64,000 bases of DNA from GCF_055900595.2 NZ_CM148325.1; one strand, 5' to 3'; shown: positions 25,261 to 36,165, numbered from the stretch's first letter. Program-made: numbers and translations. Notes: generated from the letters alone by a model not told the origin.

Positions 25261-25578
25261 TCAATTTTTCCGCTGCTCTATTGCCGTAATCGCCTCCACA
25301 CGTTGTTGATGACGACCGCCTTCGTACTGCGCGCCCAGCCACGCATCCACAATCATTTTTGCCAGTTCGAGGCCAACCACTCGTGAACCAAAAGCCAGTG
25401 CAACTTCACTGGCGTAATGCGGATAATCAGTGCGCTCTGACGACCTGGTTTCTTTATCAATCCCCTCACTCATTGACCATGAATAAAAGGCTGGCACAGC
25501 AACGCAGAATCCTGCGGTGCCAGCGACATGACCGCCCATTGCTCCGGTACGTTTTTTAATAAGAAACACCGGTTGCAT
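25261..25578 (-). pseudogene. rpiB: Remnant of ribose-5-phosphate isomerase B gene (internally deleted, 5' part scrambled)
   Basis: C-terminal ~60 aa of the ORF (SSERTDYPHYASEVALAFGSRVVGLELAKMIVDAWLGAQYEGGRHQQRVEAITAIEQRKN) matches RpiB as I recall it, but the central ~50 residues, including the GTGVG...AANK active-site region, are missing and the N-terminus does not match. Confidence 0.55.
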
Positions 25579-25830
25579 TGATTAATTGTGCTCAGTATTT
25601 GCCGAAGTACAATATATATAATAAATATATAAAACACCTCATATTATTTACAGAGATAATAAATTCGCATACTTTTCCCTCTTCAGCACAAATGCCTAAT
25701 AAAATGGCTCGTTCCGCTCACACTTCCACTTATTAAAATCGCAATTTCCCAATTATGATAACGCCAGCTTTAAATGACGTATTTTGCATGGATTACATAT
25801 TTACGACACAAATGATAAATGGAGATTTAT

Positions 25831-27816
25831 ATGAATAACTCTCGGTTATTCCGTTTGAGCAGGATTGTTATTGCGTTAACTGCCGCCAGCGGCATGATGG
25901 TAAATACCGCTCACGCAACAGATGAAGCGAAAGCCGCCACTCAATATACCCAACAGGTTAATCAGAATTACGCCAAATCATTACCGTTTAGCGATCGTCA
26001 GGATTTTGACGATGCCCAGCGCGGATTTATCGCCCCGCTGCTGGATGAAGGTATTCTGCGCGATGCGAATGGCAAAGTTTACTACCGCGCGGATGATTAC
26101 AAATTTGATATTAATGCCGCTGCGCCGGAAACCGTAAACCCCAGCCTGTGGCGTCAGTCGCAGATCAACGGCATTTCTGGCCTGTTCAAAGTCACCGATA
26201 AAATGTATCAGGTGCGCGGCCAGGATATCTCTAACATTACATTCGTTGAGGGCGAGAAAGGCATTATTGTTATCGACCCACTGGTGACACCGCCTGCCGC
26301 AAAAGCCGCACTTGACCTTTACTTCCAGCATCGTCCGCAAAAACCGATTGTTGCTGTTATTTACACCCACAGCCACGCCGACCATTATGGCGGTGTGAAA
26401 GGCATTATCTCTGAAGCGGATGTTAAATCTGGCAAAGTGCAGGTGATCGCTCCGGCAGGCTTTATGGACGAAGCCATCAGCGAAAACGTGCTGGCGGGTA
26501 ACATCATGAGCCGCCGTGCGCTCTACTCTTACGGTCTGTTACTGCCGCACAACGCGCAAGGCAACGTGGGCAACGGCCTGGGCGTGACGCTGGCAACGGG
26601 CGATCCGAGCATTATTGCGCCAACCAAAACGATTGTCAGAACTGGCGAGAAGATGGTTATCGACGGTCTGGAGTTTGACTTTCTGATGACTCCGGGTAGC
26701 GAAGCGCCAGCCGAAATGCACTTCTATATTCCGGCCCTGAAAGCCCTGTGTACCGCCGAAAACGCCACGCATACCCTGCACAACTTCTACACCCTGCGCG
26801 GCGCGAAAACCCGCGATACCAGCAAGTGGACAGCGTATCTGAACGAAACGCTGGATATGTGGGGTAACGACGCGGAAGTACTGTTTATGCCGCACACCTG
26901 GCCGGTCTGGGGCAATAAGCATATCAATGATTATATTGGTAAATATCGCGATACTATCAAATACATTCACGACCAGCCCCTGCACCTGGCGAACCAGGGT
27001 TACACCATGAATGAAATCGGCGACATGATTAAGCTGCCACCTGCGCTTGCCAATAACTGGGCCAGCCGCGGCTATTACGGTTCTGTTAGCCACAACGCCC
27101 GTGCAGTGTATAACTTCTATCTCGGCTATTATGACGGCAATCCAGCTAACCTACATCCGTACGGTCAGGTGGAGATGGGCAAACGTTACGTGAAAGCGCT
27201 GGGCGGTTCCGCCCGTGTCATCAACCTGGCGCAAGAAGCGAACAAGCAAGGGGATTACCGCTGGTCAGCAGAGTTGCTGAAACAATTGATTGCCGCCAAT
27301 CCGGGTGACCAGGTGGCGAAGAATCTGCAAGCAAATAACTTTGAACAGTTGGGTTATCAGGCCGAGTCCGCCACCTGGCGCGGTTTCTACCTGACCGGCG
27401 CAAAAGAGCTGCGCGAAGGGGTGCATAAGTTCAGCCACGGCACCACCGGTTCTCCGGACACCCTTCGCGGGATGTCGGTCGAAATGCTGTTCGACTTTAT
27501 GGCCGTTCGCCTCGATAGCGCGAAAGCCGCAGGTAAGAATATCAGCCTGAACTTCAATATGAGCAACGGCGATAACCTCAACCTGACGCTGAACGATAGC
27601 GTGCTTAACTACCGTAAAACGCTGCAACCTGAAGCCAACGCCTCTTTCTACATCAGCCGTGAAGATCTTCACGCCGTGCTGACCGGACAAGCCAAAATAG
27701 CGGATCTGGTAAAAGTGAAGAAAGCCAAAATTATTGGCAATGGCGCGAAACTGGAAGAAATTATTGCCTGTCTGGATAATTTCGATTTGTGGGTGAATAT
27801 CGTAACCCCAAATTAA
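25831..27816 (+). CDS. yjcS: Putative alkyl/aryl sulfatase YjcS (metallo-beta-lactamase fold, secreted)
   Basis: 661 aa from MNNSRLFRL; signal peptide; HSHADH motif. Confidence 0.8.
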
Positions 27817-27824
27817 TGCCACTC

Positions 27825-27866
27825 ACTTTTGGGGGCGCTTAAGCCCCCAAAAGTATTTATTTTAAA
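27825..27866 (+). terminator. Rho-independent terminator after yjcS
   Basis: Hairpin cttttgggggcgcttaagcccccaaaag followed by a T-rich run. Confidence 0.6.
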
Positions 27867-28024
27867 AATACATACAACCAATTAATACATAAAATATATA
27901 AGTTATGAATGCGGTGGCTGAATAAAGCTATTTTTATTCATCGAGAAAATAGCCATACTGACGCCTTCAATGGATATTGATATTCACTACAGATATTGTT
28001 CGCAGCAGACAGGATGTATTTAAT

Positions 28025-28300
28025 ATGCCAACAGTTCTCTCTCGCATGGCGATGCAACTCAAAAAAACAGCCTGGATAATTCCCGTCTTCATGGTTTCGG
28101 GATGCTCATTATCTCCGGCAATCCCGGTGATCGGCGCTTATTATCCCAGCTGGTTTTTCTGCGCCATTGCCAGCCTTATTTTGACGCTCATCACGAGGCG
28201 AATTATTCAGCGGGCAAATATCAATCTGGCATTTGTCGGAATTATTTATACCGCCCTTTTTGCTCTCTACGCCATGCTGTTCTGGCTGGCATTTTTCTAA
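28025..28300 (+). CDS. ytcA: Small lipoprotein/membrane protein YtcA
   Basis: 91 aa from MPTVLSRMAMQLKK with a lipobox-like MVSGCSLS; sits immediately upstream of mdtN. Confidence 0.7.
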   Translation: MPTVLSRMAMQLKKTAWIIPVFMVSGCSLSPAIPVIGAYYPSWFFCAIASLILTLITRRIIQRANINLAFVGIIYTALFALYAMLFWLAFF

Positions 28301-28318
28301 TCTATTTGAGACGCGCTC

Positions 28319-29350
28319 ATGGAAAGTACGCCGAAAAAAGCTCCTCGCAGTAAATTCCCTGCTCTGTTAGTGGTTGCGTTGGCGCTGGTTGCCCTTGTTT
28401 TCGTTATCTGGCGCGTAGACAGTGCGCCATCAACTAATGACGCCTACGCGTCAGCAGATACCATTGATGTGGTGCCGGAAGTCAGCGGTCGCATTGTAGA
28501 ACTGGCGGTCACCGACAACCAGGCGGTGAAACAGGGCGATTTGCTGTTCCGCATCGACCCGCGCCCGTACGAAGCCAATCTGGCGAAAGCCGAAGCCTCC
28601 CTCGCGGCGCTGGATAAGCAAATTATGCTCACCCAGCGTAGCGTTGACGCACAACAGTTTGGTGCCGACTCGGTTAATGCCACGGTAGAAAAAGCCCGTG
28701 CCGCCGCGAAACAGGCCAGCGATACATTACGCCGCACCGAGCCATTACTGAAAGAAGGTTTTGTCTCAGCGGAAGACGTTGACCGCGCAAGAACCGCACA
28801 GCGTGCGGCAGAAGCAGATCTTAATGCCGTATTGTTACAGGCGCAGTCAGCCGCCAGCGCTGTCAGCGGCGTTGATGCACTCGTTGCCCAACGTGCAGCT
28901 GTTGAAGCGGATATCGCCCTGACCAAGTTGCATCTGGAAATGGCAACCGTTCGCGCGCCGTTTGATGGCCGAGTCATTTCCCTCAAAACTTCGGTTGGGC
29001 AATTTGCTTCTGCCATGCGCCCTATTTTCACCCTAATCGACACCCGTCACTGGTACGTGATCGCCAACTTCCGCGAAACCGATCTGAAAAATATTCGCTC
29101 GGGTACACCCGCAACGATTCGCCTGATGAGCGACAGCGGCAAAACCTTCGCAGGTAAAGTGGATTCGATTGGCTACGGCGTGCTACCGGATGACGGCGGC
29201 CTGGTGCTGGGCGGCCTGCCGAAAGTGTCTCGTTCTATTAACTGGGTCCGCGTTGCCCAGCGTTTTCCGGTCAAAATCATGGTTGAAAAACCTGACCCGG
29301 AAATGTTCCGCATCGGCGCTTCGGCAGTCGCTAATCTTGAGCCGCAATAA
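28319..29350 (+). CDS. mdtN: Efflux pump membrane fusion protein (HlyD family)
   Basis: 343 aa; N-terminal TM anchor, coiled-coil and beta-barrel regions typical of MFPs. Confidence 0.85.
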   Translation: MESTPKKAPRSKFPALLVVALALVALVFVIWRVDSAPSTNDAYASADTIDVVPEVSGRIVELAVTDNQAVKQGDLLFRIDPRPYEANLAKAEASLAALDKQIMLTQRSVDAQQFGADSVNATVEKARAAAKQASDTLRRTEPLLKEGFVSAEDVDRARTAQRAAEADLNAVLLQAQSAASAVSGVDALVAQRAAVEADIALTKLHLEMATVRAPFDGRVISLKTSVGQFASAMRPIFTLIDTRHWYVIANFRETDLKNIRSGTPATIRLMSDSGKTFAGKVDSIGYGVLPDDGGLVLGGLPKVSRSINWVRVAQRFPVKIMVEKPDPEMFRIGASAVANLEPQ

Positions 29351-31401
29351 TGAGCGCGCTCAACTCCCTGCCATTACCGGTGGTCAGGCTGCTGGCGTTC
29401 TTTCATGAAGAGTTAAGCGAGCGGCGACCAGGTCGCGTGCCGCAGACTATGCAACTCTGGGTAGGCTGCTTGCTGGTGATTCTGATCTCGATGACTTTTG
29501 AGATCCCTTTTGTGGCGTTATCACTGGCAGTGCTGTTTTACGGTATTCAGTCGAACGCGTTTTACACCAAATTTGTCGCGATCTTGTTTGTGGTCGCCAC
29601 GATGCTGGAAATCGCCAGCCTGTTTTTGATCTACAAATGGTCATATGGCGAACCGTTGATCCGATTGATCATTGCCGGACCGATCCTGATGGGCTGTATG
29701 TTTTTGATGCGCACCCATCGGTTGGGGCTGGTCTTTTTCGCCGTCGCCATTGTCGCTATTTACGGGCAAACCTTCCCCGCCATGCTCGACTATCCGGAAG
29801 TGGTCGTGCGCTTAACCCTGTGGTGTATTGTTGTCGGCCTCTACCCGACGTTATTGATGACGTTAATCGGCGTGCTGTGGTTTCCCAGCCGCGCTATCAC
29901 GCAGATGCATCAGGTGCTTAATGATCGGCTTGATGATGCCATTAGCCACCTGACGGACAGCCTCGCACCGCTACCCGAAACGCGGATTGAAAGAGAGGCG
30001 CTGGCGCTGCAAAAACTCAATGTCTTTTGCCTCGCGGACGATGCCAACTGGCGAACTCAGAGCGCATGGTGGCAAAGCTGCGTGGCAACGGTAACCTACA
30101 TTTACTCGACGCTGAATCGCTACGATCCCACCTCTTTTGCTGATTCTCAGGCAATTATTGAATTTCGGCAAAAATTAGCCTCAGAAATCAACAAACTGCA
30201 GCATGCCATTGCCGAAGGTCAGTGCTGGCAAAGCGACTGGCGGATCACTGAAAGTGAAGCGATGGCGGCACGGGAATGTAACCTGGAGAATATCTGCCAG
30301 ACATTGTTGCAACTGGGTCAGATGGACCCGAATACGCCGCCAACGCCCGCCGCCAAACCGCCATCAATGGTCGCCGATGCTTTTACCAATCCAGACTATA
30401 TGCGCTACGCGGTAAAAACGCTGCTCGCCTGTTTGATCTGTTACACCTTCTACAGCGGCGTGGACTGGGAAGGCATTCACACCTGTATGCTGACCTGCGT
30501 GATCGTCGCTAACCCCAATGTCGGTTCGTCGTACCAGAAGATGGTGTTGCGTTTTGGCGGGGCTTTTTGCGGCGCAATTCTGGCGCTGTTATTCACGCTA
30601 CTGGTCATGCCCTGGCTGGACAATATTGTCGAATTGCTGTTTGTGCTGGCACCGATTTTCCTGTTGGGCGCATGGATTGCCACCAGCTCTGAACGCTCTT
30701 CTTATATCGGCACACAGATGGTGGTCACCTTCGCGCTCGCCACGCTCGAAAACGTTTTTGGCCCGGTGTACGACCTGGTGGAAATTCGCGATCGCGCCCT
30801 GGGTATCATCATTGGTACCGTGGTGTCCGCGGTGATTTACACCTTTGTCTGGCCTGAAAGTGAAGCGCGCACACTGCCGCAAAAACTGGCTGGCGCGCTG
30901 GGTATGTTGAGTAAAGTAATGCGGATCCCACGCCAGCAGGAAGTCACGGCTCTGCGCACTTATCTGCAAATTCGCATAGGTCTGCATGCGGCGTTTAATG
31001 CCTGTGAAGAGATGTGCCAACGCGTGGCGCTGGAACGTCAACTGGATAGCGAAGAACGCGCGTTACTGATTGAACGTTCGCAAACGGTTATTCGTCAGGG
31101 CCGCGATATTCTTCACGCCTGGGATGCAACCTGGAACTCGGCGCAGGCGCTGGATAACGCACTACAGCCGGACAGAGCAGGCCTGTTTGCCGACGCACTG
31201 GAGAAATACGCCGCCGGCCTGGCAAGCGCATTCAGTCGTTCTCCTCAAATAACGCTTGAAGAAACACCCGCCTCGCAGGCCATTCTGCCGACCTTATTAA
31301 AACAGGAGCAACACGTCTGCCAGCTTTTCGCCCGCTTGCCAGACTGGACAGCCCCGGCATTAACGCCCGCCACGGAACAGGCACAAGGAGCCACGCAATG
31401 A
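29350..31401 (+). CDS. mdtO: Efflux pump inner-membrane component (FUSC/aromatic acid exporter family)
   Basis: 683 aa multi-TM protein; start overlaps the mdtN stop. Confidence 0.85.
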   Translation: MSALNSLPLPVVRLLAFFHEELSERRPGRVPQTMQLWVGCLLVILISMTFEIPFVALSLAVLFYGIQSNAFYTKFVAILFVVATMLEIASLFLIYKWSYGEPLIRLIIAGPILMGCMFLMRTHRLGLVFFAVAIVAIYGQTFPAMLDYPEVVVRLTLWCIVVGLYPTLLMTLIGVLWFPSRAITQMHQVLNDRLDDAISHLTDSLAPLPETRIEREALALQKLNVFCLADDANWRTQSAWWQSCVATVTYIYSTLNRYDPTSFADSQAIIEFRQKLASEINKLQHAIAEGQCWQSDWRITESEAMAARECNLENICQTLLQLGQMDPNTPPTPAAKPPSMVADAFTNPDYMRYAVKTLLACLICYTFYSGVDWEGIHTCMLTCVIVANPNVGSSYQKMVLRFGGAFCGAILALLFTLLVMPWLDNIVELLFVLAPIFLLGAWIATSSERSSYIGTQMVVTFALATLENVFGPVYDLVEIRDRALGIIIGTVVSAVIYTFVWPESEARTLPQKLAGALGMLSKVMRIPRQQEVTALRTYLQIRIGLHAAFNACEEMCQRVALERQLDSEERALLIERSQTVIRQGRDILHAWDATWNSAQALDNALQPDRAGLFADALEKYAAGLASAFSRSPQITLEETPASQAILPTLLKQEQHVCQLFARLPDWTAPALTPATEQAQGATQ

Positions 31402-32864
31402 TCAATCGTCAACTTTCACGCCTGCTGTTGTGCAGCATTCTCGGCAGCACGACGCTGATTTCCGGCTGTGCCCTGGTACGTAAGGATTCTGCGCCTCATC
31501 AACAGCTCAAACCGGAACAAATCAAACTGGCCGATGATATTCATCTTGCCAGCTCCGGTTGGCCGCAGGCGCAGTGGTGGAAACAACTCAATGACCCGCA
31601 GTTGGATGCTTTGATCCAACGGACGCTAAGTGGTTCACACACCCTCGCCGAAGCGAAACTGCGGGAAGAAAAAGCGCAGTCGCAGGCCGATTTGTTAGAT
31701 GCCGGTTCACAATTACAGGTCGCAGCGTTAGGGATGCTCAACCGCCAACGTGTCTCGGCGAACGGCTTTTTAAGCCCTTATGCTATGGATGCGCCAGCAC
31801 TGGGTATGGACGGGCCGTACTATACGGAAGCCACAGTCGGTTTGTTTGCCGGACTGGATCTTGATTTGTGGGGTGTGCATCGCTCAGCGGTTGCCGCCGC
31901 CATTGGCGCGCATAATGCAGCGCTGGCAGAAACCGCAGCAGTAGAGCTATCGCTGACCACGGGCGTAGCGCAGCTTTATTACAGTATGCAGGCCAGCTAT
32001 CAGATGCTCGATCTGTTAGAACAAACTCGCGATGTGATTGATTACGCGGTGAAAGCGCACCAGAGCAAAGTGGCGCACGGCCTGGAAGCGCAAGTGCCTT
32101 TCCACGGCGCGCGGGCGCAGATTCTGGCGGTCGATAAACAAATTGCTGCCGTTAAAGGGCAAATCACCGAAACGCGAGAATCTCTGCGTGCATTGATTGG
32201 CGCAGGAGCCAGCGATATGCCGGAGATCAAACCGGTGGCATTACCGCAAGTCCAGACCGGTATTCCGGCGACACTCTCTTATGAGTTGCTCGCCAGACGC
32301 CCGGATCTGCAAGCCATGCGCTGGTATGTTCAGGCGTCATTAGATCAGGTGGATTCCGCGCGGGCGCTGTTCTATCCGAGCTTTGATATCAAAGCGTTTT
32401 TCGGCCTGGATTCTATCCACCTGGATACCTTATTCAAAAAAACCAGTCGCCAGTTCAACTTCATTCCTGGTCTGAAATTGCCGCTGTTTGACGGTGGACG
32501 GTTGAATGCCAATCTCGAAGGCACGCGCGCCGCCAGCAACATGATGATTGAACGTTACAACCAGTCAGTGCTGAATGCGGTGCGCGACGTTGCCGTCAAC
32601 GGCACGCGTCTGCAAACGCTCAACGACGAGCGAGAGATGCAGGCTGAACGCGTGGAAGCAACGCGCTTCACCCAGCGCGCTGCCGAGGCCGCCTATCAAC
32701 GCGGCTTAACCAGCCGCTTACAGGCCACCGAAGCCCGGTTGCCTGTGCTTGCCGAGGAGATGTCATTACTGATGCTGGACAGCCGCCGGGTGATCCAAAG
32801 CATTCAGTTGATGAAATCGCTGGGTGGCGGGTATCAGGCGGCTCCCGTCTTCGAGAAAAAATAA
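31398..32864 (+). CDS. mdtP: Efflux pump outer membrane factor (OMF lipoprotein)
   Basis: 488 aa; lipobox LISGCALV; 4-nt overlap with mdtO. Confidence 0.85.
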   Translation: MINRQLSRLLLCSILGSTTLISGCALVRKDSAPHQQLKPEQIKLADDIHLASSGWPQAQWWKQLNDPQLDALIQRTLSGSHTLAEAKLREEKAQSQADLLDAGSQLQVAALGMLNRQRVSANGFLSPYAMDAPALGMDGPYYTEATVGLFAGLDLDLWGVHRSAVAAAIGAHNAALAETAAVELSLTTGVAQLYYSMQASYQMLDLLEQTRDVIDYAVKAHQSKVAHGLEAQVPFHGARAQILAVDKQIAAVKGQITETRESLRALIGAGASDMPEIKPVALPQVQTGIPATLSYELLARRPDLQAMRWYVQASLDQVDSARALFYPSFDIKAFFGLDSIHLDTLFKKTSRQFNFIPGLKLPLFDGGRLNANLEGTRAASNMMIERYNQSVLNAVRDVAVNGTRLQTLNDEREMQAERVEATRFTQRAAEAAYQRGLTSRLQATEARLPVLAEEMSLLMLDSRRVIQSIQLMKSLGGGYQAAPVFEKK

Positions 32865-32993
32865 AATGTCAGCCGCGTGATGGCTGTCACGCGGTATTTC
32901 GTTTCGTCACGTCAAAACTGACGACAGCCTGTTTTTCGTCAGAGTTTTGAACAAATAGTGCCCGTAATATCAGGGAATGACCCCAAATAAAAT

Positions 32994-33010
32994 GTGGCAT
33001 AAAAGATGCA
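32994..33010 (+). promoter_or_regulatory. Sigma-54 (-24/-12) promoter of fdhF
   Basis: tggcataaaagatgca fits the TGGCAC-N5-TTGCA spacing (GG and GC 10 bp apart), ~55 bp upstream of the fdhF ATG. Confidence 0.5.
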
Positions 33011-33061
33011 TACTGTAGTCGAGAGCGCGTATGCGTGATTTGATTAACTGGAGCGAGACCG

Positions 33062-35209
33062 ATGAAAAAAGTCGTCACGGTTTGCCCCTATTGCGCATCA
33101 GGTTGCAAAATCAACCTGGTCGTCGATAACGGCAAAATCGTCCGGGCGGAGGCAGCGCAGGGGAAAACCAACCAGGGTACCCTGTGTCTGAAGGGTTATT
33201 ATGGCTGGGACTTCATTAACGATACCCAGATCCTGACCCCGCGCCTGAAAACCCCCATGATTCGTCGCCAGCGTGGCGGCAAACTCGAACCTGTTTCCTG
33301 GGATGAGGCACTGAATTACGTTGCCGAGCGCCTGAGCGCCATCAAAGAGAAGTACGGTCCGGATGCCATCCAGACGACCGGCTCCTCGCGTGGTACGGGT
33401 AACGAAACCAACTATGTAATGCAAAAATTTGCGCGCGCCGTTATTGGTACCAATAACGTTGACTGCTGCGCTCGTGTCTGACACGGCCCATCGGTTGCAG
33501 GTCTGCACCAATCGGTCGGTAATGGCGCAATGAGCAATGCTATTAACGAAATTGATAATACCGATTTAGTGTTCGTTTTCGGGTACAACCCGGCGGATTC
33601 CCACCCTATCGTGGCGAATCACGTAATTAACGCTAAACGTAACGGGGCGAAAATTATCGTCTGCGATCCGCGCAAAATTGAAACTGCGCGCATTGCTGAC
33701 ATGCACATTGCACTGAAAAACGGCTCGAATATCGCGCTGTTGAATGCGATGGGCCATGTCATTATTGAAGAAAATCTGTACGACAAAGCGTTCGTCGCTT
33801 CCCGTACAGAAGGCTTTGAAGAGTATCGTAAAATCGTTGAAGGCTACACGCCGGAGTCGGTTGAAGATATCACCGGCGTCAGCGCCAGTGAGATTCGTCA
33901 GGCGGCTCGGATGTATGCCCAGGCGAAAAGCGCCGCCATCCTGTGGGGCATGGGTGTAACCCAGTTCTACCAGGGCGTGGAAACCGTGCGTTCTCTGACC
34001 AGCCTCGCGATGCTGACTGGTAACCTCGGTAAGCCGCATGCGGGTGTAAACCCGGTTCGTGGGCAAAACAACGTGCAGGGTGCCTGCGATATGGGCGCGC
34101 TGCCAGATACTTACCCTGGCTACCAGTACGTGAAAGATCCGGCTAACCGCGAGAAATTCGCCAAAGCCTGGGGTGTAGAGAGTTTGCCAGCACATACCGG
34201 TTATCGCATCAGCGAGCTGCCGCATCGCGCAGCGCATGGTGAAGTGCGTGCCGCGTACATTATGGGCGAAGATCCGCTACAAACTGACGCGGAGCTGTCG
34301 GCAGTACGTAAAGCCTTTGAAGATCTGGAACTGGTCATCGTTCAGGACATCTTTATGACCAAAACCGCGTCGGCGGCGGATGTCATTTTACCGTCAACGT
34401 CGTGGGGCGAGCATGAAGGCGTGTTTACTGCGGCTGACCGTGGCTTCCAGCGTTTCTTCAAGGCGGTTGAACCGAAGTGGGATCTGAAAACGGACTGGCA
34501 GATTATCAGTGAAATCGCCACCCGTATGGGTTATCCGATGCACTACAACAACACCCAGGAGATCTGGGACGAGTTGCGTCACCTGTGCCCGGATTTCTAC
34601 GGTGCGACTTACGAGAAAATGGGCGAACTGGGCTTCATTCAGTGGCCTTGCCGCGATACTTCAGATGCCGATCAGGGGACTTCTTATTTGTTTAAAGAGA
34701 AGTTTGATACCCCGAACGGTCTGGCGCAGTTCTTCACCTGCGACTGGGTAGCGCCAATCGACAAACTCACCGACGAGTATCCGATGGTACTGTCAACGGT
34801 GCGTGAAGTCGGTCACTACTCTTGCCGTTCGATGACCGGTAACTGTGCGGCACTGGCGGCGCTGGCTGATGAACCTGGCTACGCACAAATCAATACCGAA
34901 GACGCCAAACGTCTGGGTATTGAAGATGAGGCATTGGTTTGGGTGCACTCGCGTAAAGGCAAAATTATCACCCGTGCGCAGGTCAGCGATCGTCCGAACA
35001 AAGGGGCGATTTACATGACCTACCAGTGGTGGATTGGTGCCTGTAACGAGCTGGTTACCGAAAACTTAAGCCCGATTACGAAAACGCCGGAATACAAATA
35101 CTGCGCCGTGCGCGTCGAGCCGATCGCCGATCAGCGCGCCGCCGAGCAGTACGTGATTGACGAGTACAACAAGTTGAAAACTCGCCTGCGCGAAGCGGCA
35201 TTGGCGTAA
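33062..35209 (+). CDS. fdhF: Formate dehydrogenase H (selenocysteine-containing; UGA at 33479-33481 decoded as Sec)
   Basis: Two same-frame ORFs (33062-33481 and 33530-35209) separated only by a TGA; joined product 715 aa; N-terminal Cys cluster CPYCASGC; SECIS hairpin immediately 3' of the UGA. Confidence 0.9.
33482..33525 (+). other. SECIS element (SelB-binding mRNA hairpin) directing Sec insertion at the fdhF UGA
   Basis: cacggcccatcggttgcaggtctgcaccaatcggtcggtaatggc immediately follows the in-frame TGA and matches the fdhF SECIS as I recall it. Confidence 0.7.
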
Positions 35210-35223
35210 TACAGTCCTTTCTA

Positions 35224-35250
35224 CAGCCTCCTGTTGGAGGCTGTTTTTTT
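35224..35250 (+). terminator. Rho-independent terminator after fdhF
   Basis: cagcctcctgttggaggctg followed by a T7 run. Confidence 0.7.
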
Positions 35251-35302
35251 ATCCATTCGAACTCTTTATACTGGTCACTCCCTACCCAATCGTATTATCA
35301 AA

Positions 35303-35992
35303 ATGAAAAAAATTATCGCATTGATGTTGTTTTTGACATTCTTTGCCCACGCGAACGACTCCGAGCCTGGCAGTCAGTATTTAAAGGCAGCAGAGGCCGG
35401 GGACCGACGCGCACAATATTTTCTTGCCGACAGCTGGTTTAGCTCCGGCGATTTGAGCAAAGCCGAATATTGGGCACAGAAAGCCGCCGACAGCGGTGAT
35501 GCTGATGCCTGCGCACTGTTAGCGCAGATCAAAATCACCAATCCGGTCAGTCTGGACTATCCACAAGCAAAAGTTCTTGCAGAGAAAGCGGCGCAAGCAG
35601 GCAGTAAAGAAGGTGAAGTGACGCTGGCGCATATTCTGGTGAATACTCAAGCGGGTAAACCGGATTATCCAAAGGCGATTTCGCTGTTAGAAAACGCCTC
35701 GGAAGATCTGGAGAACGACTCCGCCGTCGATGCCCAAATGCTGCTTGGTTTGATTTACGCCAACGGCGTGGGCATTAAGGCCGACGATGACAAGGCAACC
35801 TGGTATTTCAAACGCAGCTCTGCGATTTCCCGAACCGGTTATTCCGAGTACTGGGCGGGAATGATGTTCTTAAATGGTGAAGAAGGTTTTATCGAGAAGA
35901 ACAAACAGAAGGCGCTGCACTGGCTGAACCTGAGCTGTATGGAAGGGTTTGATACCGGGTGTGAAGAGTTTGAAAAATTAACTAACGGTTAA
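35303..35992 (+). CDS. yjcO: Sel1-repeat (TPR-like) secreted protein YjcO
   Basis: 229 aa from MKKIIALMLFL; signal peptide plus repeated Sel1-like motifs. Confidence 0.75.
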   Translation: MKKIIALMLFLTFFAHANDSEPGSQYLKAAEAGDRRAQYFLADSWFSSGDLSKAEYWAQKAADSGDADACALLAQIKITNPVSLDYPQAKVLAEKAAQAGSKEGEVTLAHILVNTQAGKPDYPKAISLLENASEDLENDSAVDAQMLLGLIYANGVGIKADDDKATWYFKRSSAISRTGYSEYWAGMMFLNGEEGFIEKNKQKALHWLNLSCMEGFDTGCEEFEKLTNG

Positions 35993-35994
35993 TG

Positions 35995-36165
35995 TAGGCC
36001 TGATAAGACGCGGCAAGCGTCGCATCAGGCATTGATGTCGGATGCGGCGTAAACGCCTTATCCGACCTACAAAATCACGCTAAATCAGGCTATTGCGCAG
36101 TCTGGCGTAGGCCTGATAAGACGCGGTAAGCGTCGCATCAGGCATCCACACATTGCCGGGTGTAT
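35995..36165. repeat. Cluster of REP/BIME units
   Basis: Three copies of gtaggcctgataagacgcg...cgtcgcatcaggc / ggatgcggcgtaaacgccttatccgacctac in alternating orientation. Confidence 0.85.

Follow-up and report, generated by a model that had tools for sequence, protein, structure and literature searches.

A probable four-component FUSC-type efflux system encoded by ytcA-mdtNOP in Escherichia coli

Background

Of the efflux systems that span the cell envelope, FUSC-type pumps form the least understood class, and the ytcA-mdtNOP operon, carried by the 64,000-nucleotide stretch of DNA analysed here (the window), raises the question of what such a pump exports and which part is played by YtcA, which looks like a conserved and hardly studied fourth subunit. 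An earlier note on this DNA had described the locus as a tripartite system led by a small lipoprotein and had called the substrates of FUSC pumps poorly defined, a judgement with which the literature agrees (PMC11762307, PMC8672772); it was silent on the kinship of YtcA to AaeX/DUF1656 and on the wide conservation of the four-gene module. Earlier cloning and overexpression screens may, speculatively, have omitted ytcA. Spontaneous deletions can switch the pump on and give high-level resistance to protonophore antibiotics without TolC, which bears on efflux-inhibitor strategies.

The operon itself is already known, and since it is textbook-annotated its presence in an E. coli window is no news. 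What is added here is the internal duplication of MdtO and its kinship to plant ALMT anion channels, the alignment of YtcA with AaeX, the synteny of the module and the purifying selection acting on it.

Operon identity and boundaries

The locus is the annotated E. coli ytcA-mdtNOP operon, real, intact and no chance pattern. Four plus-strand reading frames, ytcA through mdtP, exist as the earlier note described them and are borne out by ORF calls, Pfam and NCBIfam matches and annotation (Table 1). The start that it gave, 27977, has to be moved, being an upstream TTG that opens the maximal 107-aa ORF; the gene starts at the position equivalent to the annotated ATG in the RefSeq record of a 99.9%-identical genome, and the size of 91 aa agrees with that annotation.

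Table 1. Features of the ytcA-mdtNOP locus, in window coordinates.
Feature	Coordinates	Strand	Basis or detail
yjcS, type III alkyl sulfatase (metallo-beta-lactamase fold), separate transcription unit, conserved upstream neighbour	25831..27816	+	
Terminator-like hairpin 3' of yjcS, upstream boundary of ytcA-mdtNOP	27825..27854	+	12-bp stem, 7 G-C pairs, T-rich tail
AT-rich ytcA leader/promoter region	27855..28024	+	GC 0.33 across 27800-27999
ytcA, 91 aa, predicted prolipoprotein	28025..28300	+	ORF, annotation, Pfam
mdtN, 343 aa, EmrA/HlyD-type periplasmic adaptor	28319..29350	+	ORF, Pfam, NCBIfam
mdtO, 683 aa, FUSC/ArAE-type inner-membrane component	29350..31401	+	ORF, Pfam, NCBIfam, predicted structure
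mdtP, 488 aa, NodT-family outer-membrane factor lipoprotein	31398..32864	+	ORF, Pfam, NCBIfam
Terminator-like hairpin 3' of mdtP, downstream boundary of ytcA-mdtNOP	32872..32895	+	10-bp stem, T-rich tail

Eighteen nucleotides lie between the ytcA stop and the mdtN start, the mdtN stop and mdtO start overlap by 1 nt (TAATG), and the mdtO stop and mdtP start form an ATGA overlap with an AAGGAG Shine-Dalgarno sequence at 31386-31391. The four genes are thus a single compact, translationally coupled unit flanked by two terminators. The operon includes its own outer-membrane factor gene (mdtP) and has no adjacent regulator. Upstream of ytcA, the plus strand gave no match to a sigma-70 consensus promoter, and a sigma-54 motif was not found there. 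The GC profile of the operon (0.46-0.63) carries no foreign-island signature. A sub-threshold Rfam match to a fluoride riboswitch inside mdtN, the sole one in 27500-33300, was taken as noise.

Among 5426 complete E. coli genomes, 5419 contain the locus, annotated under the same names, and in 5387 a single place covers 80% or more of the 5.8-kb query. The very high dS (~0.4) against another E. coli at first suggested a divergent allele; since the same set of nine near-identical genomes turns up at the adjoining fdhF region, it is a lineage effect and not an anomaly of the locus.

Pump components

MdtO is a FUSC-family protein (FUSC, PF04632, 61.6 bits against a cut-off of 30.9; FUSC_2, 32.2 against 25.6) and scores 1361 bits with its NCBIfam equivalog model (cut-off 821), while neither Pfam nor NCBIfam gave an RND (ACR_tran), MFS or ABC domain. 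Its AF2 model (pLDDT 90.2, pTM 0.88) matched only ALMT1, ALMT12 and ALMT9 in a Foldseek search of the PDB, at probabilities of 0.97-1.00 and target-normalised TM-scores of 0.41-0.49; MFS chains reached probabilities of at most 0.09, and there was no AcrB-type match. The earlier assignment to FUSC, and not to RND, MFS or ABC, is therefore upheld. A profile search of the PDB with MdtO likewise found GmALMT12 (7w6k, E = 1.9e-4), whereas phmmer against the PDB returned nothing meaningful for either MdtO or YtcA, and neither these searches nor Foldseek with MdtO found a structure of a FUSC pump component. FUSC and plant ALMT presumably belong to the same Pfam clan. Some papers label MdtO as RND, MFS or ABC, and reviews still place it under MFS or RND.

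The two halves of MdtO (residues 27-325 and 348-666) align with each other in hhalign (probability 89.7%, E = 1.8e-6, 290 columns), and the helix pattern of the model is consistent with this duplication, each half consisting of a transmembrane bundle and a cytoplasmic helical domain. MdtO thus has an ALMT-like fold and is a pseudo-dimer by internal duplication, one chain corresponding to an ALMT dimer because each half resembles one ALMT protomer.

MdtN is an EmrA-like adaptor with a membrane anchor. It matches HlyD_3, HlyD_D23 and Biotin_lipoyl_2 in Pfam, the EmrA/EmrK subfamily model TIGR00998 (414.4 bits, cut-off 390.8), the NCBIfam MdtN equivalog (532 bits, cut-off 376) and the AaeA model (E = 4e-41), and it has a single N-terminal membrane helix at about residues 13-31 (hydrophobic stretch 10-37); its description as an HlyD-type adaptor holds. 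MdtP, for its part, is a NodT-type outer-membrane channel lipoprotein, as had been expected, with OEP matched in two stretches, 272 bits for TIGR01845 (NodT; cut-off 210), 1024 bits for the NCBIfam MdtP equivalog (cut-off 597) and a LISGC lipobox at Cys24.

YtcA and its relation to AaeX

YtcA carries a V-S-G-C lipobox after its signal peptide (Cys27, codon 28103-28105), and the 65 aa of the mature protein form a membrane hairpin, modelled at pLDDT 87-90, whose two helices are joined by an RR-x-x-x-R loop. It belongs to Pfam Ytca (PF17090; 57.2 bits against a gathering cut-off of 28.8), as do all 36 diverse homologues derived from synteny. A [L/V/I/M..]-x-[G/A]-C box stands in all 73 extracted homologues and, judged by eye, in one more (L043), with a residue at +2 that is never Asp; the lipobox of this leading ORF, which the earlier note called lipoprotein-like, is thus conserved in every homologue examined. 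Together with the lipobox Cys, the motif PS-x-x-V-L-G-A-Y/F-F-P-D-W-L-F-C is kept throughout, and the Cys, P35, W37, C40 and W81 columns of the homologue alignment are invariant.

In BLASTP, YtcA 28-88 aligns with AaeX 2-61 at 37% identity (E = 1e-5), beginning directly after the lipobox Cys, and hhalign against DUF1656/AaeX gave E = 8.4e-5 across 51 columns, with probabilities of only 48-60% over the hhalign comparisons. The Pfam DUF1656 model (PF07869) scores YtcA at 20.7 bits (E = 4e-4), below its gathering cut-off of 26.5, and matches 15 of the 36 diverse homologues at E <= 0.01, the best at E = 4e-6. YtcA also shares with the AaeX family its form, a hairpin of two helices and ~65 aa, and the place of its gene directly upstream of an adaptor and FUSC pair. 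By these comparisons it is likely a remote homologue of DUF1656/AaeX and not a formal member of that family. YtcA is, in sum, a lipobox-bearing prolipoprotein whose mature hairpin is akin to the small protein that accompanies other FUSC pumps.

Conservation, synteny and selection

The breadth of the YtcA family was established by synteny-guided HMM searches, with loci gathered by an 8-sequence MdtO alignment. The order YtcA-MdtN-MdtO-MdtP was found in all 73 loci with upstream DNA, which include Enterobacteriaceae, Burkholderiaceae, Pseudomonas, Dyella, Paludibacterium and a Puniceicoccales MAG. Five distant family members also have the module (one has its OEP gene upstream, and for another no OEP gene is recorded), and in all 73 loci and these five relatives ytcA stands directly upstream of the adaptor gene, so that in this FUSC subfamily the two are never apart. 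A word-indexed search had made YtcA appear as an Enterobacteriaceae-only family with a few 'distant' members, a picture that was discarded when alignment showed those members (P0041, P0092-P0095) to be translations of frameshifted E. coli pseudogenes.

All four genes are under purifying selection (dN/dS 0.01-0.38), with values of 0.01-0.15 for mdtN, mdtO and mdtP and below 0.4 for ytcA. Some E. coli and Shigella carry a frameshifted ytcA, and Kluyvera genomosp. 3 (L022) has the operon in fragments.

Directly upstream of ytcA, yjcS was found in 13 enteric loci of the clade that contains E. coli MdtO, and a formylglycine-type sulfatase with a radical-SAM maturase lies upstream of ytcA in three Burkholderia/Paraburkholderia loci and one Citrobacter locus; another PF00884 sulfatase adjoins a distant module (L081). 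Two unrelated sulfatase types thus occur directly upstream of ytcA in the E. coli MdtO clade, and a functional link is a lead only.

Proposed mechanism and alternative explanations

As a whole, the locus is best explained as the known ytcA-mdtNOP operon, whose four products probably make up an efflux system of the FUSC/ArAE ('PET') type that spans the envelope. Given the gene coupling and synteny, the four proteins may work as one assembly. We infer that its cargo is most likely lipophilic weak-acid anions and that YtcA would be a fourth subunit held by a lipid anchor: the fused ALMT-like dimer of MdtO suggests potential-driven anion export, and the fact that YtcA is never separated from the pump suggests a subunit. 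MdtO would pick up such weak-acid anions, or aromatic ones, in the cytoplasm or the inner leaflet and pass them via an MdtN sleeve to the MdtP channel, driven by the membrane potential or the proton-motive force and not by ATP. YtcA would lie next to MdtO or MdtN, its acylated N-terminal Cys in the periplasmic leaflet of the inner membrane, and would be the fourth subunit that helps the complex to assemble or stabilises it, a role proposed also for AaeX and FusD. Expression of the operon is probably low under laboratory conditions. In characterised FUSC-family members the validated substrates are aromatic carboxylates, pHBA and fusaric acid (PMC7682875, PMC3517613). Resistance of a tolC deletion strain to the phenolic protonophores pyrrolomycin and armeniaspirol requires mdtOP (PMC8672772, which for pyrrolomycin cites Valderrama 2019).

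Reported deletion phenotypes with cationic drugs and mixed antibiotics do not fit a pure anion-export model, and it might be supposed that MdtNOP is a conventional multidrug/proton antiporter for cationic or amphiphilic drugs (acriflavine, puromycin, tetraphenylarsonium, sulfonamides) to which YtcA is incidental. Strains null for mdtP are reported as more susceptible to puromycin, acriflavine and tetraphenylarsonium (PMC11762307; Chem Rev table PMC8277102), and deletion of mdtO in a planktonic ocular isolate lowered the MICs of sulfamethoxazole, imipenem, erythromycin and streptomycin 1.5- to 2-fold (PMC6598151). These effects are small, however, and the mdtP phenotype could stem from MdtP serving other pumps, whereas MdtO lacks any RND or MFS domain, its fold matches only anion channels, its characterised relatives have aromatic carboxylates as validated substrates (PMC7682875, PMC3517613), and the sole strong phenotype concerns phenolic weak acids (PMC8672772); we regard an antiporter as quite improbable. 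Less credible still is that YtcA stands outside the pump, either as a small lipoprotein of the envelope with no relation to it or as a leader ORF translated only to regulate expression of the downstream mdtNOP genes. Its homology to AaeX does lie under the Pfam threshold, and mdtOP functions without ytcA in deletion mutants: the activating deletion in pyrrolomycin- and armeniaspirol-resistant strains removes ytcA and mdtN, and mdtOP still confers resistance above 64 ug/ml (PMC8672772). YtcA and MdtN are thus not strictly required in those strains, unless paralogues (AaeX/AaeA, YdhI/YdhJ, EmrA) substitute. Yet what distant phyla have kept is the protein sequence itself, with its five invariant residues, beyond the mere position of an ORF; the low dN/dS, the fixed site upstream of the adaptor and the cofitness of analogous DUF1656 genes with their own adaptor and FUSC genes in RB-TnSeq (10.1101/072470) also argue for a subunit.

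It is very unlikely that in E. coli the operon is a remnant, cryptic and in effect silent, that serves no physiological role today. The AT-rich leader without a consensus promoter, a promoter without experimental confirmation in the literature (PMC11762307), the frameshifted and fragmented copies described above and resistance that appears only after rearrangements bringing a foreign promoter (PMC8672772) would all be consistent with it, but the locus is present in nearly all complete E. coli genomes, all four of its genes are under strong purifying selection, and the module is kept across phyla.

Beyond the preferred reading of a four-component exporter of weak-acid anions, a bolder one holds that YtcA-MdtNOP is a widespread and distinct four-subunit efflux class, made of an ALMT-fold anion conduit, an outer-membrane channel and an obligatory lipid-anchored, DUF1656-like YtcA, whose natural task would be linked to sulfatases of the periplasm. 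Its cargo would then be amphipathic sulfate esters (sulfates of alkyl or aryl type, sulfated metabolites of host or plant) or else the phenols and alcohols that these esters release. We consider this version, in its full extent, unlikely.

Comparison with known systems

Among the closest known systems is AaeXAB, the p-hydroxybenzoate efflux system of E. coli, which has the same order as ytcA-mdtNO, namely a small two-helix membrane protein, an HlyD-type adaptor and a FUSC transporter, and YdhIJK is reported to share this layout (DUF1656, adaptor, FUSC/ArAE). Mature YtcA aligns along the full length of AaeX, and the Pfam labels show an AaeA-type beta-barrel domain common to AaeA and MdtN. AaeX, however, has neither signal peptide nor lipobox, unlike the predicted prolipoprotein YtcA, and MdtO forms a subfamily distinct from the AaeXAB transporter, with an equivalog model of its own. 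To our knowledge aaeXAB has no outer-membrane factor gene, whereas ytcA-mdtNOP has mdtP; aaeXAB has the divergent LysR regulator AaeR, a counterpart of which is missing next to ytcA-mdtNOP.

In composition, ytcA-mdtNOP resembles FusA/Bucl8-FusCDE of Burkholderia and FuaABC of Stenotrophomonas, four-component or 'tetrapartite' systems of an outer-membrane factor lipoprotein, a FUSC protein, a DUF1656 protein and an adaptor, in which FusD, a DUF1656 small protein of 67 aa, has been proposed as the fourth component of the fusaric-acid pump (PMC7682875). These pumps export aromatic carboxylic acids and show no broad multidrug phenotype (PMC7682875). Their gene order differs (OMF-FUSC-DUF-adaptor, against small protein-adaptor-FUSC-OMF), FusD is not reported as lipidated whereas YtcA has a lipobox, and they are induced through a LysR regulator, fusaric acid and pHBA being known to act in this way, while mdtNOP has no known inducer or natural substrate.

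EmrAB-TolC likewise has an EmrA/EmrK-subfamily adaptor with an N-terminal membrane helix and no lipid anchor. Its inner-membrane component, however, is an MFS protein and not FUSC (an EmrAB-TolC PDB chain matched MdtO at a probability of 0.05, noise level), and it works through TolC without a small lipoprotein at its side, in contrast to mdtNOP with MdtP and YtcA. AcrZ and YajC offer an analogy, drawn in PMC7682875, for the role proposed for YtcA, being small inner-membrane proteins that associate with and modulate the inner-membrane component of a tripartite pump; they have no sequence relationship to YtcA, and AcrZ is a single, non-lipidated helix encoded outside the pump operon, whereas YtcA is a two-helix hairpin encoded within it.

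Solved structures with the fold of MdtO come only from the plant ALMT/QUAC anion channels (AtALMT1, 7voj; GmALMT12, 7w6k; AtALMT9, 8hiw), at a sequence identity of 10-17%. ALMTs are homodimeric passive anion channels of plant membranes without adaptor or outer-membrane partners, whereas MdtO is a fused pseudo-dimer that comes with MdtN, MdtP and YtcA.

Operon composition and genomic setting

YtcA, the small protein encoded ahead of mdtN, mdtO and mdtP, appears from sequence comparison to be a lipobox-bearing relative of AaeX, the small protein of the aaeXAB pump, and to be a constant member of a four-gene module found in several phyla. The four genes, all intact in the window (Table), form an already known operon that the earlier note had described correctly, as borne out by the open reading frame (ORF) list, the RefSeq names, Pfam (Ytca, HlyD_3/HlyD_D23, FUSC/FUSC_2 and OEP on the four proteins) and full-length matches, well over cut-offs, to the NCBIfam equivalog models of MdtN, MdtO and MdtP. 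The stretch 27500-33300 is matched in 5419 of 5426 complete E. coli genomes, and the closest genome (99.9% identity) has the RefSeq gene order yjcS, ytcA, mdtN, mdtO, mdtP, fdhF. The length of 91 aa quoted earlier for YtcA stands, being that obtained from the annotated ATG at 28025, whereas the start once placed at 27977 is the TTG opening a maximal 107-aa ORF.

Table. Coordinates of features in the window and in related loci (L numbers) from other genomes
Feature	Sequence	Coordinates	Strand	Remarks
rpiB, truncated	window	25261-25578	-	318 nt; next to yjcS upstream region
rpiR-alsBACEK	window	~25261-25830		absent
yjcS	window	25831-27816		alkyl sulfatase gene next to ytcA-mdtNOP
Hairpin 3' of yjcS	window	27825-27854		12-bp G+C-rich stem, T tail
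ytcA	window	28025-28300	+	91 aa; ORF list
mdtN	window	28319-29350	+	343 aa; ORF list
mdtO	window	29350-31401	+	683 aa; ORF list
mdtP	window	31398-32864	+	488 aa; ORF list
Hairpin 3' of mdtP	window	32872-32895		10-bp stem, T tail
TGGCAT-N5-ATGCA	window	32995-33011		between mdtP and fdhF
fdhF	window	33062-35209		two ORFs, 33062-33481 and 33530-35209
PF00884 sulfatase + maturase	L021	1463-4529
PF00884 sulfatase + maturase	L023	1377-4479
PF00884 sulfatase + maturase	L025	1370-4513
PF00884 sulfatase + maturase	L011	1290-4272
PF00884 sulfatase	L081	7755-9653		adjoining distant module
Ytca-adaptor-FUSC-OEP module	L083	803-9100		distant module

Coupling between the genes is tight: the gap between ytcA and mdtN is 18 nt, the stop codon of mdtN and the start codon of mdtO have one base in common (TAATG), and mdtO and mdtP overlap by ATGA, with AAGGAG 7 nt upstream. 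About 170 nt of AT-rich DNA (GC 0.33 over 27800-27999) extend from the yjcS hairpin to ytcA, and neither a consensus sigma-70 promoter (+ strand searched) nor a sigma-54 motif was found in this leader; Rfam gave no credible match in the operon region. A recent review counts the mdtNOP promoter as unconfirmed (PMC11762307).

Lineage was compared over regions 28319-31401 and 33062-36000. Only 9 of ~5400 complete E. coli genomes reach at least 99% identity in either region, the remainder having ~96% identity for mdtNO and ~98% for fdhF-yjcO, and on these identities the window is assigned to an E. coli lineage that is rare and divergent. In K-12 the rpiR-alsBACEK allose operon is situated between rpiB and yjcS; the window does not have it. 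The junction of truncated rpiB with yjcS recurs in 1569 of the 5426 complete E. coli genomes and is therefore a common natural variant. Laboratory deletions within the rpiB-yjcS interval activate mdtOP. One genome (H34; NZ_CP077469.1, E. coli O111:H11 strain 8D) carries a natural deletion of the entire phn-yjcS-ytcA-mdtN interval, with just the mdtO 3' end left, adjoining phnD. On the other side of the operon, fdhF is seen as two ORFs because of its in-frame selenocysteine TGA (33479-33481) at codon position 140; the split is expected and does not mark a pseudogene. The TGGCAT-N5-ATGCA motif is consistent with the known fdhF sigma-54 promoter, and gSELEX placed an RpoN site between mdtP and fdhF (PMC8743547).

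YtcA and its probable relation to AaeX

The leading ORF had been called lipoprotein-like, in agreement with its Pfam Ytca match and with a signal peptide ending in a V-S-G-C lipobox (Cys27). After the cysteine, a short stretch rich in proline leads into a hydrophobic helix; an RR-x-x-x-R loop then connects to a second hydrophobic helix reaching the C terminus. In an AlphaFold2 model built from a broad alignment, the signal peptide is helical, the lipobox segment is extended and modelled with low confidence, and a hairpin of two helices follows at pLDDT 87-90.

Alongside Ytca, the protein has a weak Pfam match to DUF1656; the small protein AaeX, whose gene precedes aaeA-aaeB, belongs to this family. 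Our AaeX query sequence scored 72 bits with DUF1656, and proteins 100% identical to it were recovered from the database in a search with matches named AaeX. By BLASTP, YtcA 28-88 aligns with AaeX 2-61 (37% identity, E = 1e-5), a span running from the first residue past the lipobox cysteine to near both C-terminal ends. Profiles compared with each other matched at E = 1.9e-4 when only enteric sequences were used, and at E = 8.4e-5 over 51 columns when the broad YtcA alignment was used. Among diverse YtcA homologues, 36/36 match Pfam Ytca and 15/36 match DUF1656 at E <= 0.01 (best 4e-6); YtcA itself is not filed as a DUF1656 member because its score lies below the Pfam threshold. The comparisons support a remote common origin, with YtcA as a putative AaeX-like hairpin that acquired a lipoprotein signal peptide. 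In the literature searched, there was no mention of YtcA together with AaeX or YdhI.

Conservation of the four-gene module

Scanning an MdtO alignment against one genome per species yielded 79 loci, from enteric genera (Escherichia, Klebsiella, Pluralibacter, Salmonella, Citrobacter, Pseudocitrobacter, Kluyvera and Superficieibacter), from Burkholderia, Paraburkholderia, Caballeronia, Trinickia and Cupriavidus, and from Pseudomonas, Dyella, Paludibacterium and one Puniceicoccales MAG. Upstream small ORFs were sought with an HMM made from enteric YtcA, and a YtcA ORF (E 1e-14 to 1e-48) lies directly 5' of the adaptor gene in all loci covering that DNA, where the order YtcA, MdtN, MdtO, MdtP on a single strand is kept without exception. 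All YtcA homologues of these loci have the lipobox cysteine, with the +2 residue never Asp; the motif PS-x-x-V-L-G-A-Y/F-F-P-D-W-L-F-C hardly varies, and the mature proteins have 65-70 residues. In public assemblies, five distant MdtO relatives (26-35% identity) likewise have a Pfam Ytca gene right before the adaptor and FUSC genes (5/5), with the OEP gene following them in three cases, preceding them in one and not recorded in the fifth. Since this synteny includes distant relatives, the four-gene module characterises this FUSC subfamily as a whole, and it is much broader than the first YtcA homologue search had indicated. One distant module (L083) sits amid HdeA, PLP-dependent decarboxylase and Na+/H+ exchanger genes, an acid-stress-like neighbourhood.

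In the clade containing E. coli MdtO, sulfatase genes of two unrelated kinds recur directly 5' of ytcA. YjcS, a metallo-beta-lactamase-fold alkyl sulfatase, occupies this place in 13 enteric loci, the reference locus L001 included (split in L022, duplicated in L024). A formylglycine-type sulfatase (PF00884) with a radical-SAM/SPASM maturase abuts ytcA on the same strand in three Burkholderia/Paraburkholderia loci, and lies 5' of it in a different orientation in one Citrobacter locus; no sulfatase was found in the Kluyvera loci. This adjacency amounts to a few independent events and is not proof, but ytcA-mdtNOP may be functionally linked to sulfate esters, and the neighbours suggest these esters, or their phenol or alcohol products, as possible MdtNOP substrates or inducers.

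Pump components and the fold of MdtO

The HlyD-type adaptor and outer-membrane factor (OMF) lipoprotein of the earlier description are recovered as such. MdtN, matching HlyD_3/HlyD_D23, also scores above the EmrA/EmrK adaptor subfamily cut-off, and is membrane-anchored and not lipidated, given a single hydrophobic helix at its N terminus with lysines and arginines ahead of it; MdtP combines its OEP match with a score above the NodT OMF subfamily cut-off and an LISGC lipobox.

A PDB sequence search with MdtO as single query gave no matches. Among 1.84 billion representative proteins searched, 1644 relatives were found, 46 of which were aligned (A4) as input to an AlphaFold2 model (mean pLDDT 90.2, pTM 0.88). 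Foldseek of this model against the PDB gave high probability for plant ALMT anion channels only, namely AtALMT1, GmALMT12/QUAC1 and AtALMT9 (probability 0.97-1.00, TM-score 0.41-0.49 normalised to target), with MFS transporters and the EmrAB-TolC chain at <=0.09; GmALMT12 was also matched by sequence with the A4 profile (E = 1.9e-4). Residues 27-325 align with 348-666 (hhalign probability 90%, E = 1.8e-6, 290 columns), and one chain is therefore a fused pseudo-dimer. Two reviews label MdtO an MFS pump (PMC11762307, PMC8277102) and one research paper labels it an RND component and AcrB homologue (PMC8672772); these labels are not supported and are contradicted by the domain matches and the modelled fold, which agree with the earlier assignment to a FUSC type that is not RND, MFS or ABC.

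Selection, phenotypes and proposed mechanism

Some lineages are losing the module: ytcA is frameshifted or truncated in some E. coli and Shigella sonnei genomes (P0041, P0092-P0095, P0056), mdtN is split in Pluralibacter (L005) and Kluyvera georgiana (L020), and mdtN, mdtO and mdtP are fragmented in Kluyvera genomosp. 3 (L022). A reading of the operon as a decaying remnant is opposed by dN/dS against other Escherichia species and enteric genera, at 0.01-0.06 for mdtN, 0.06-0.15 for mdtO, 0.04-0.07 for mdtP and 0.13-0.38 for ytcA with its fast-evolving signal peptide included, ratios that indicate an operon maintained by selection.

Beside the operon composition and coupling, protein folds, YtcA topology features and conserved synteny established in this analysis, we propose that MdtO would conduct lipophilic or aromatic weak-acid anions outward. 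The membrane potential or proton-motive force would drive this, given that no ATPase gene is present in the operon and that anion channels are the closest relatives by structure. In the periplasm MdtN would form a sleeve, with MdtP as the duct leading out. YtcA would be placed beside MdtO or the membrane anchor of MdtN, with its acylated N terminus in the outer leaflet of the inner membrane, and would help to assemble or stabilise the pump as a further subunit.

The clearest mdtNOP phenotype is that of tolC deletion strains, in which an 8855-bp deletion takes out alsR through mdtN, puts mdtOP behind the als promoter and gives >16-fold resistance to pyrrolomycins and armeniaspirols, with sensitivity back upon further deletion of mdtOP (PMC8672772). 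Both compound classes are phenolic weak-acid protonophores. Resistance by mdtOP without ytcA and mdtN is the main counter-evidence to this scheme; under forced expression YtcA may thus not be needed, or AaeX or YdhI may be able to replace it. A review reports that mdtP deletion sensitises cells to puromycin, acriflavine and tetraphenylarsonium (PMC11762307), and mdtO deletion in one isolate lowered a few MICs of planktonic cells, by <2-fold to 2-fold (PMC6598151). The cationic-drug phenotypes do not fit a simple anion exporter, but the effects are small and mostly OMF-related.

The sulfatase neighbourhood, the YtcA-AaeX relation within a fixed module and the ALMT-like pseudo-dimer of MdtO may be of interest to specialists. 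Among known systems, the Burkholderia Bucl8-FusCDE pump, with FusD as its small protein, has been termed tetrapartite (PMC7682875), and ALMT channels are homodimers of the unit that is present twice, fused, in one MdtO chain.
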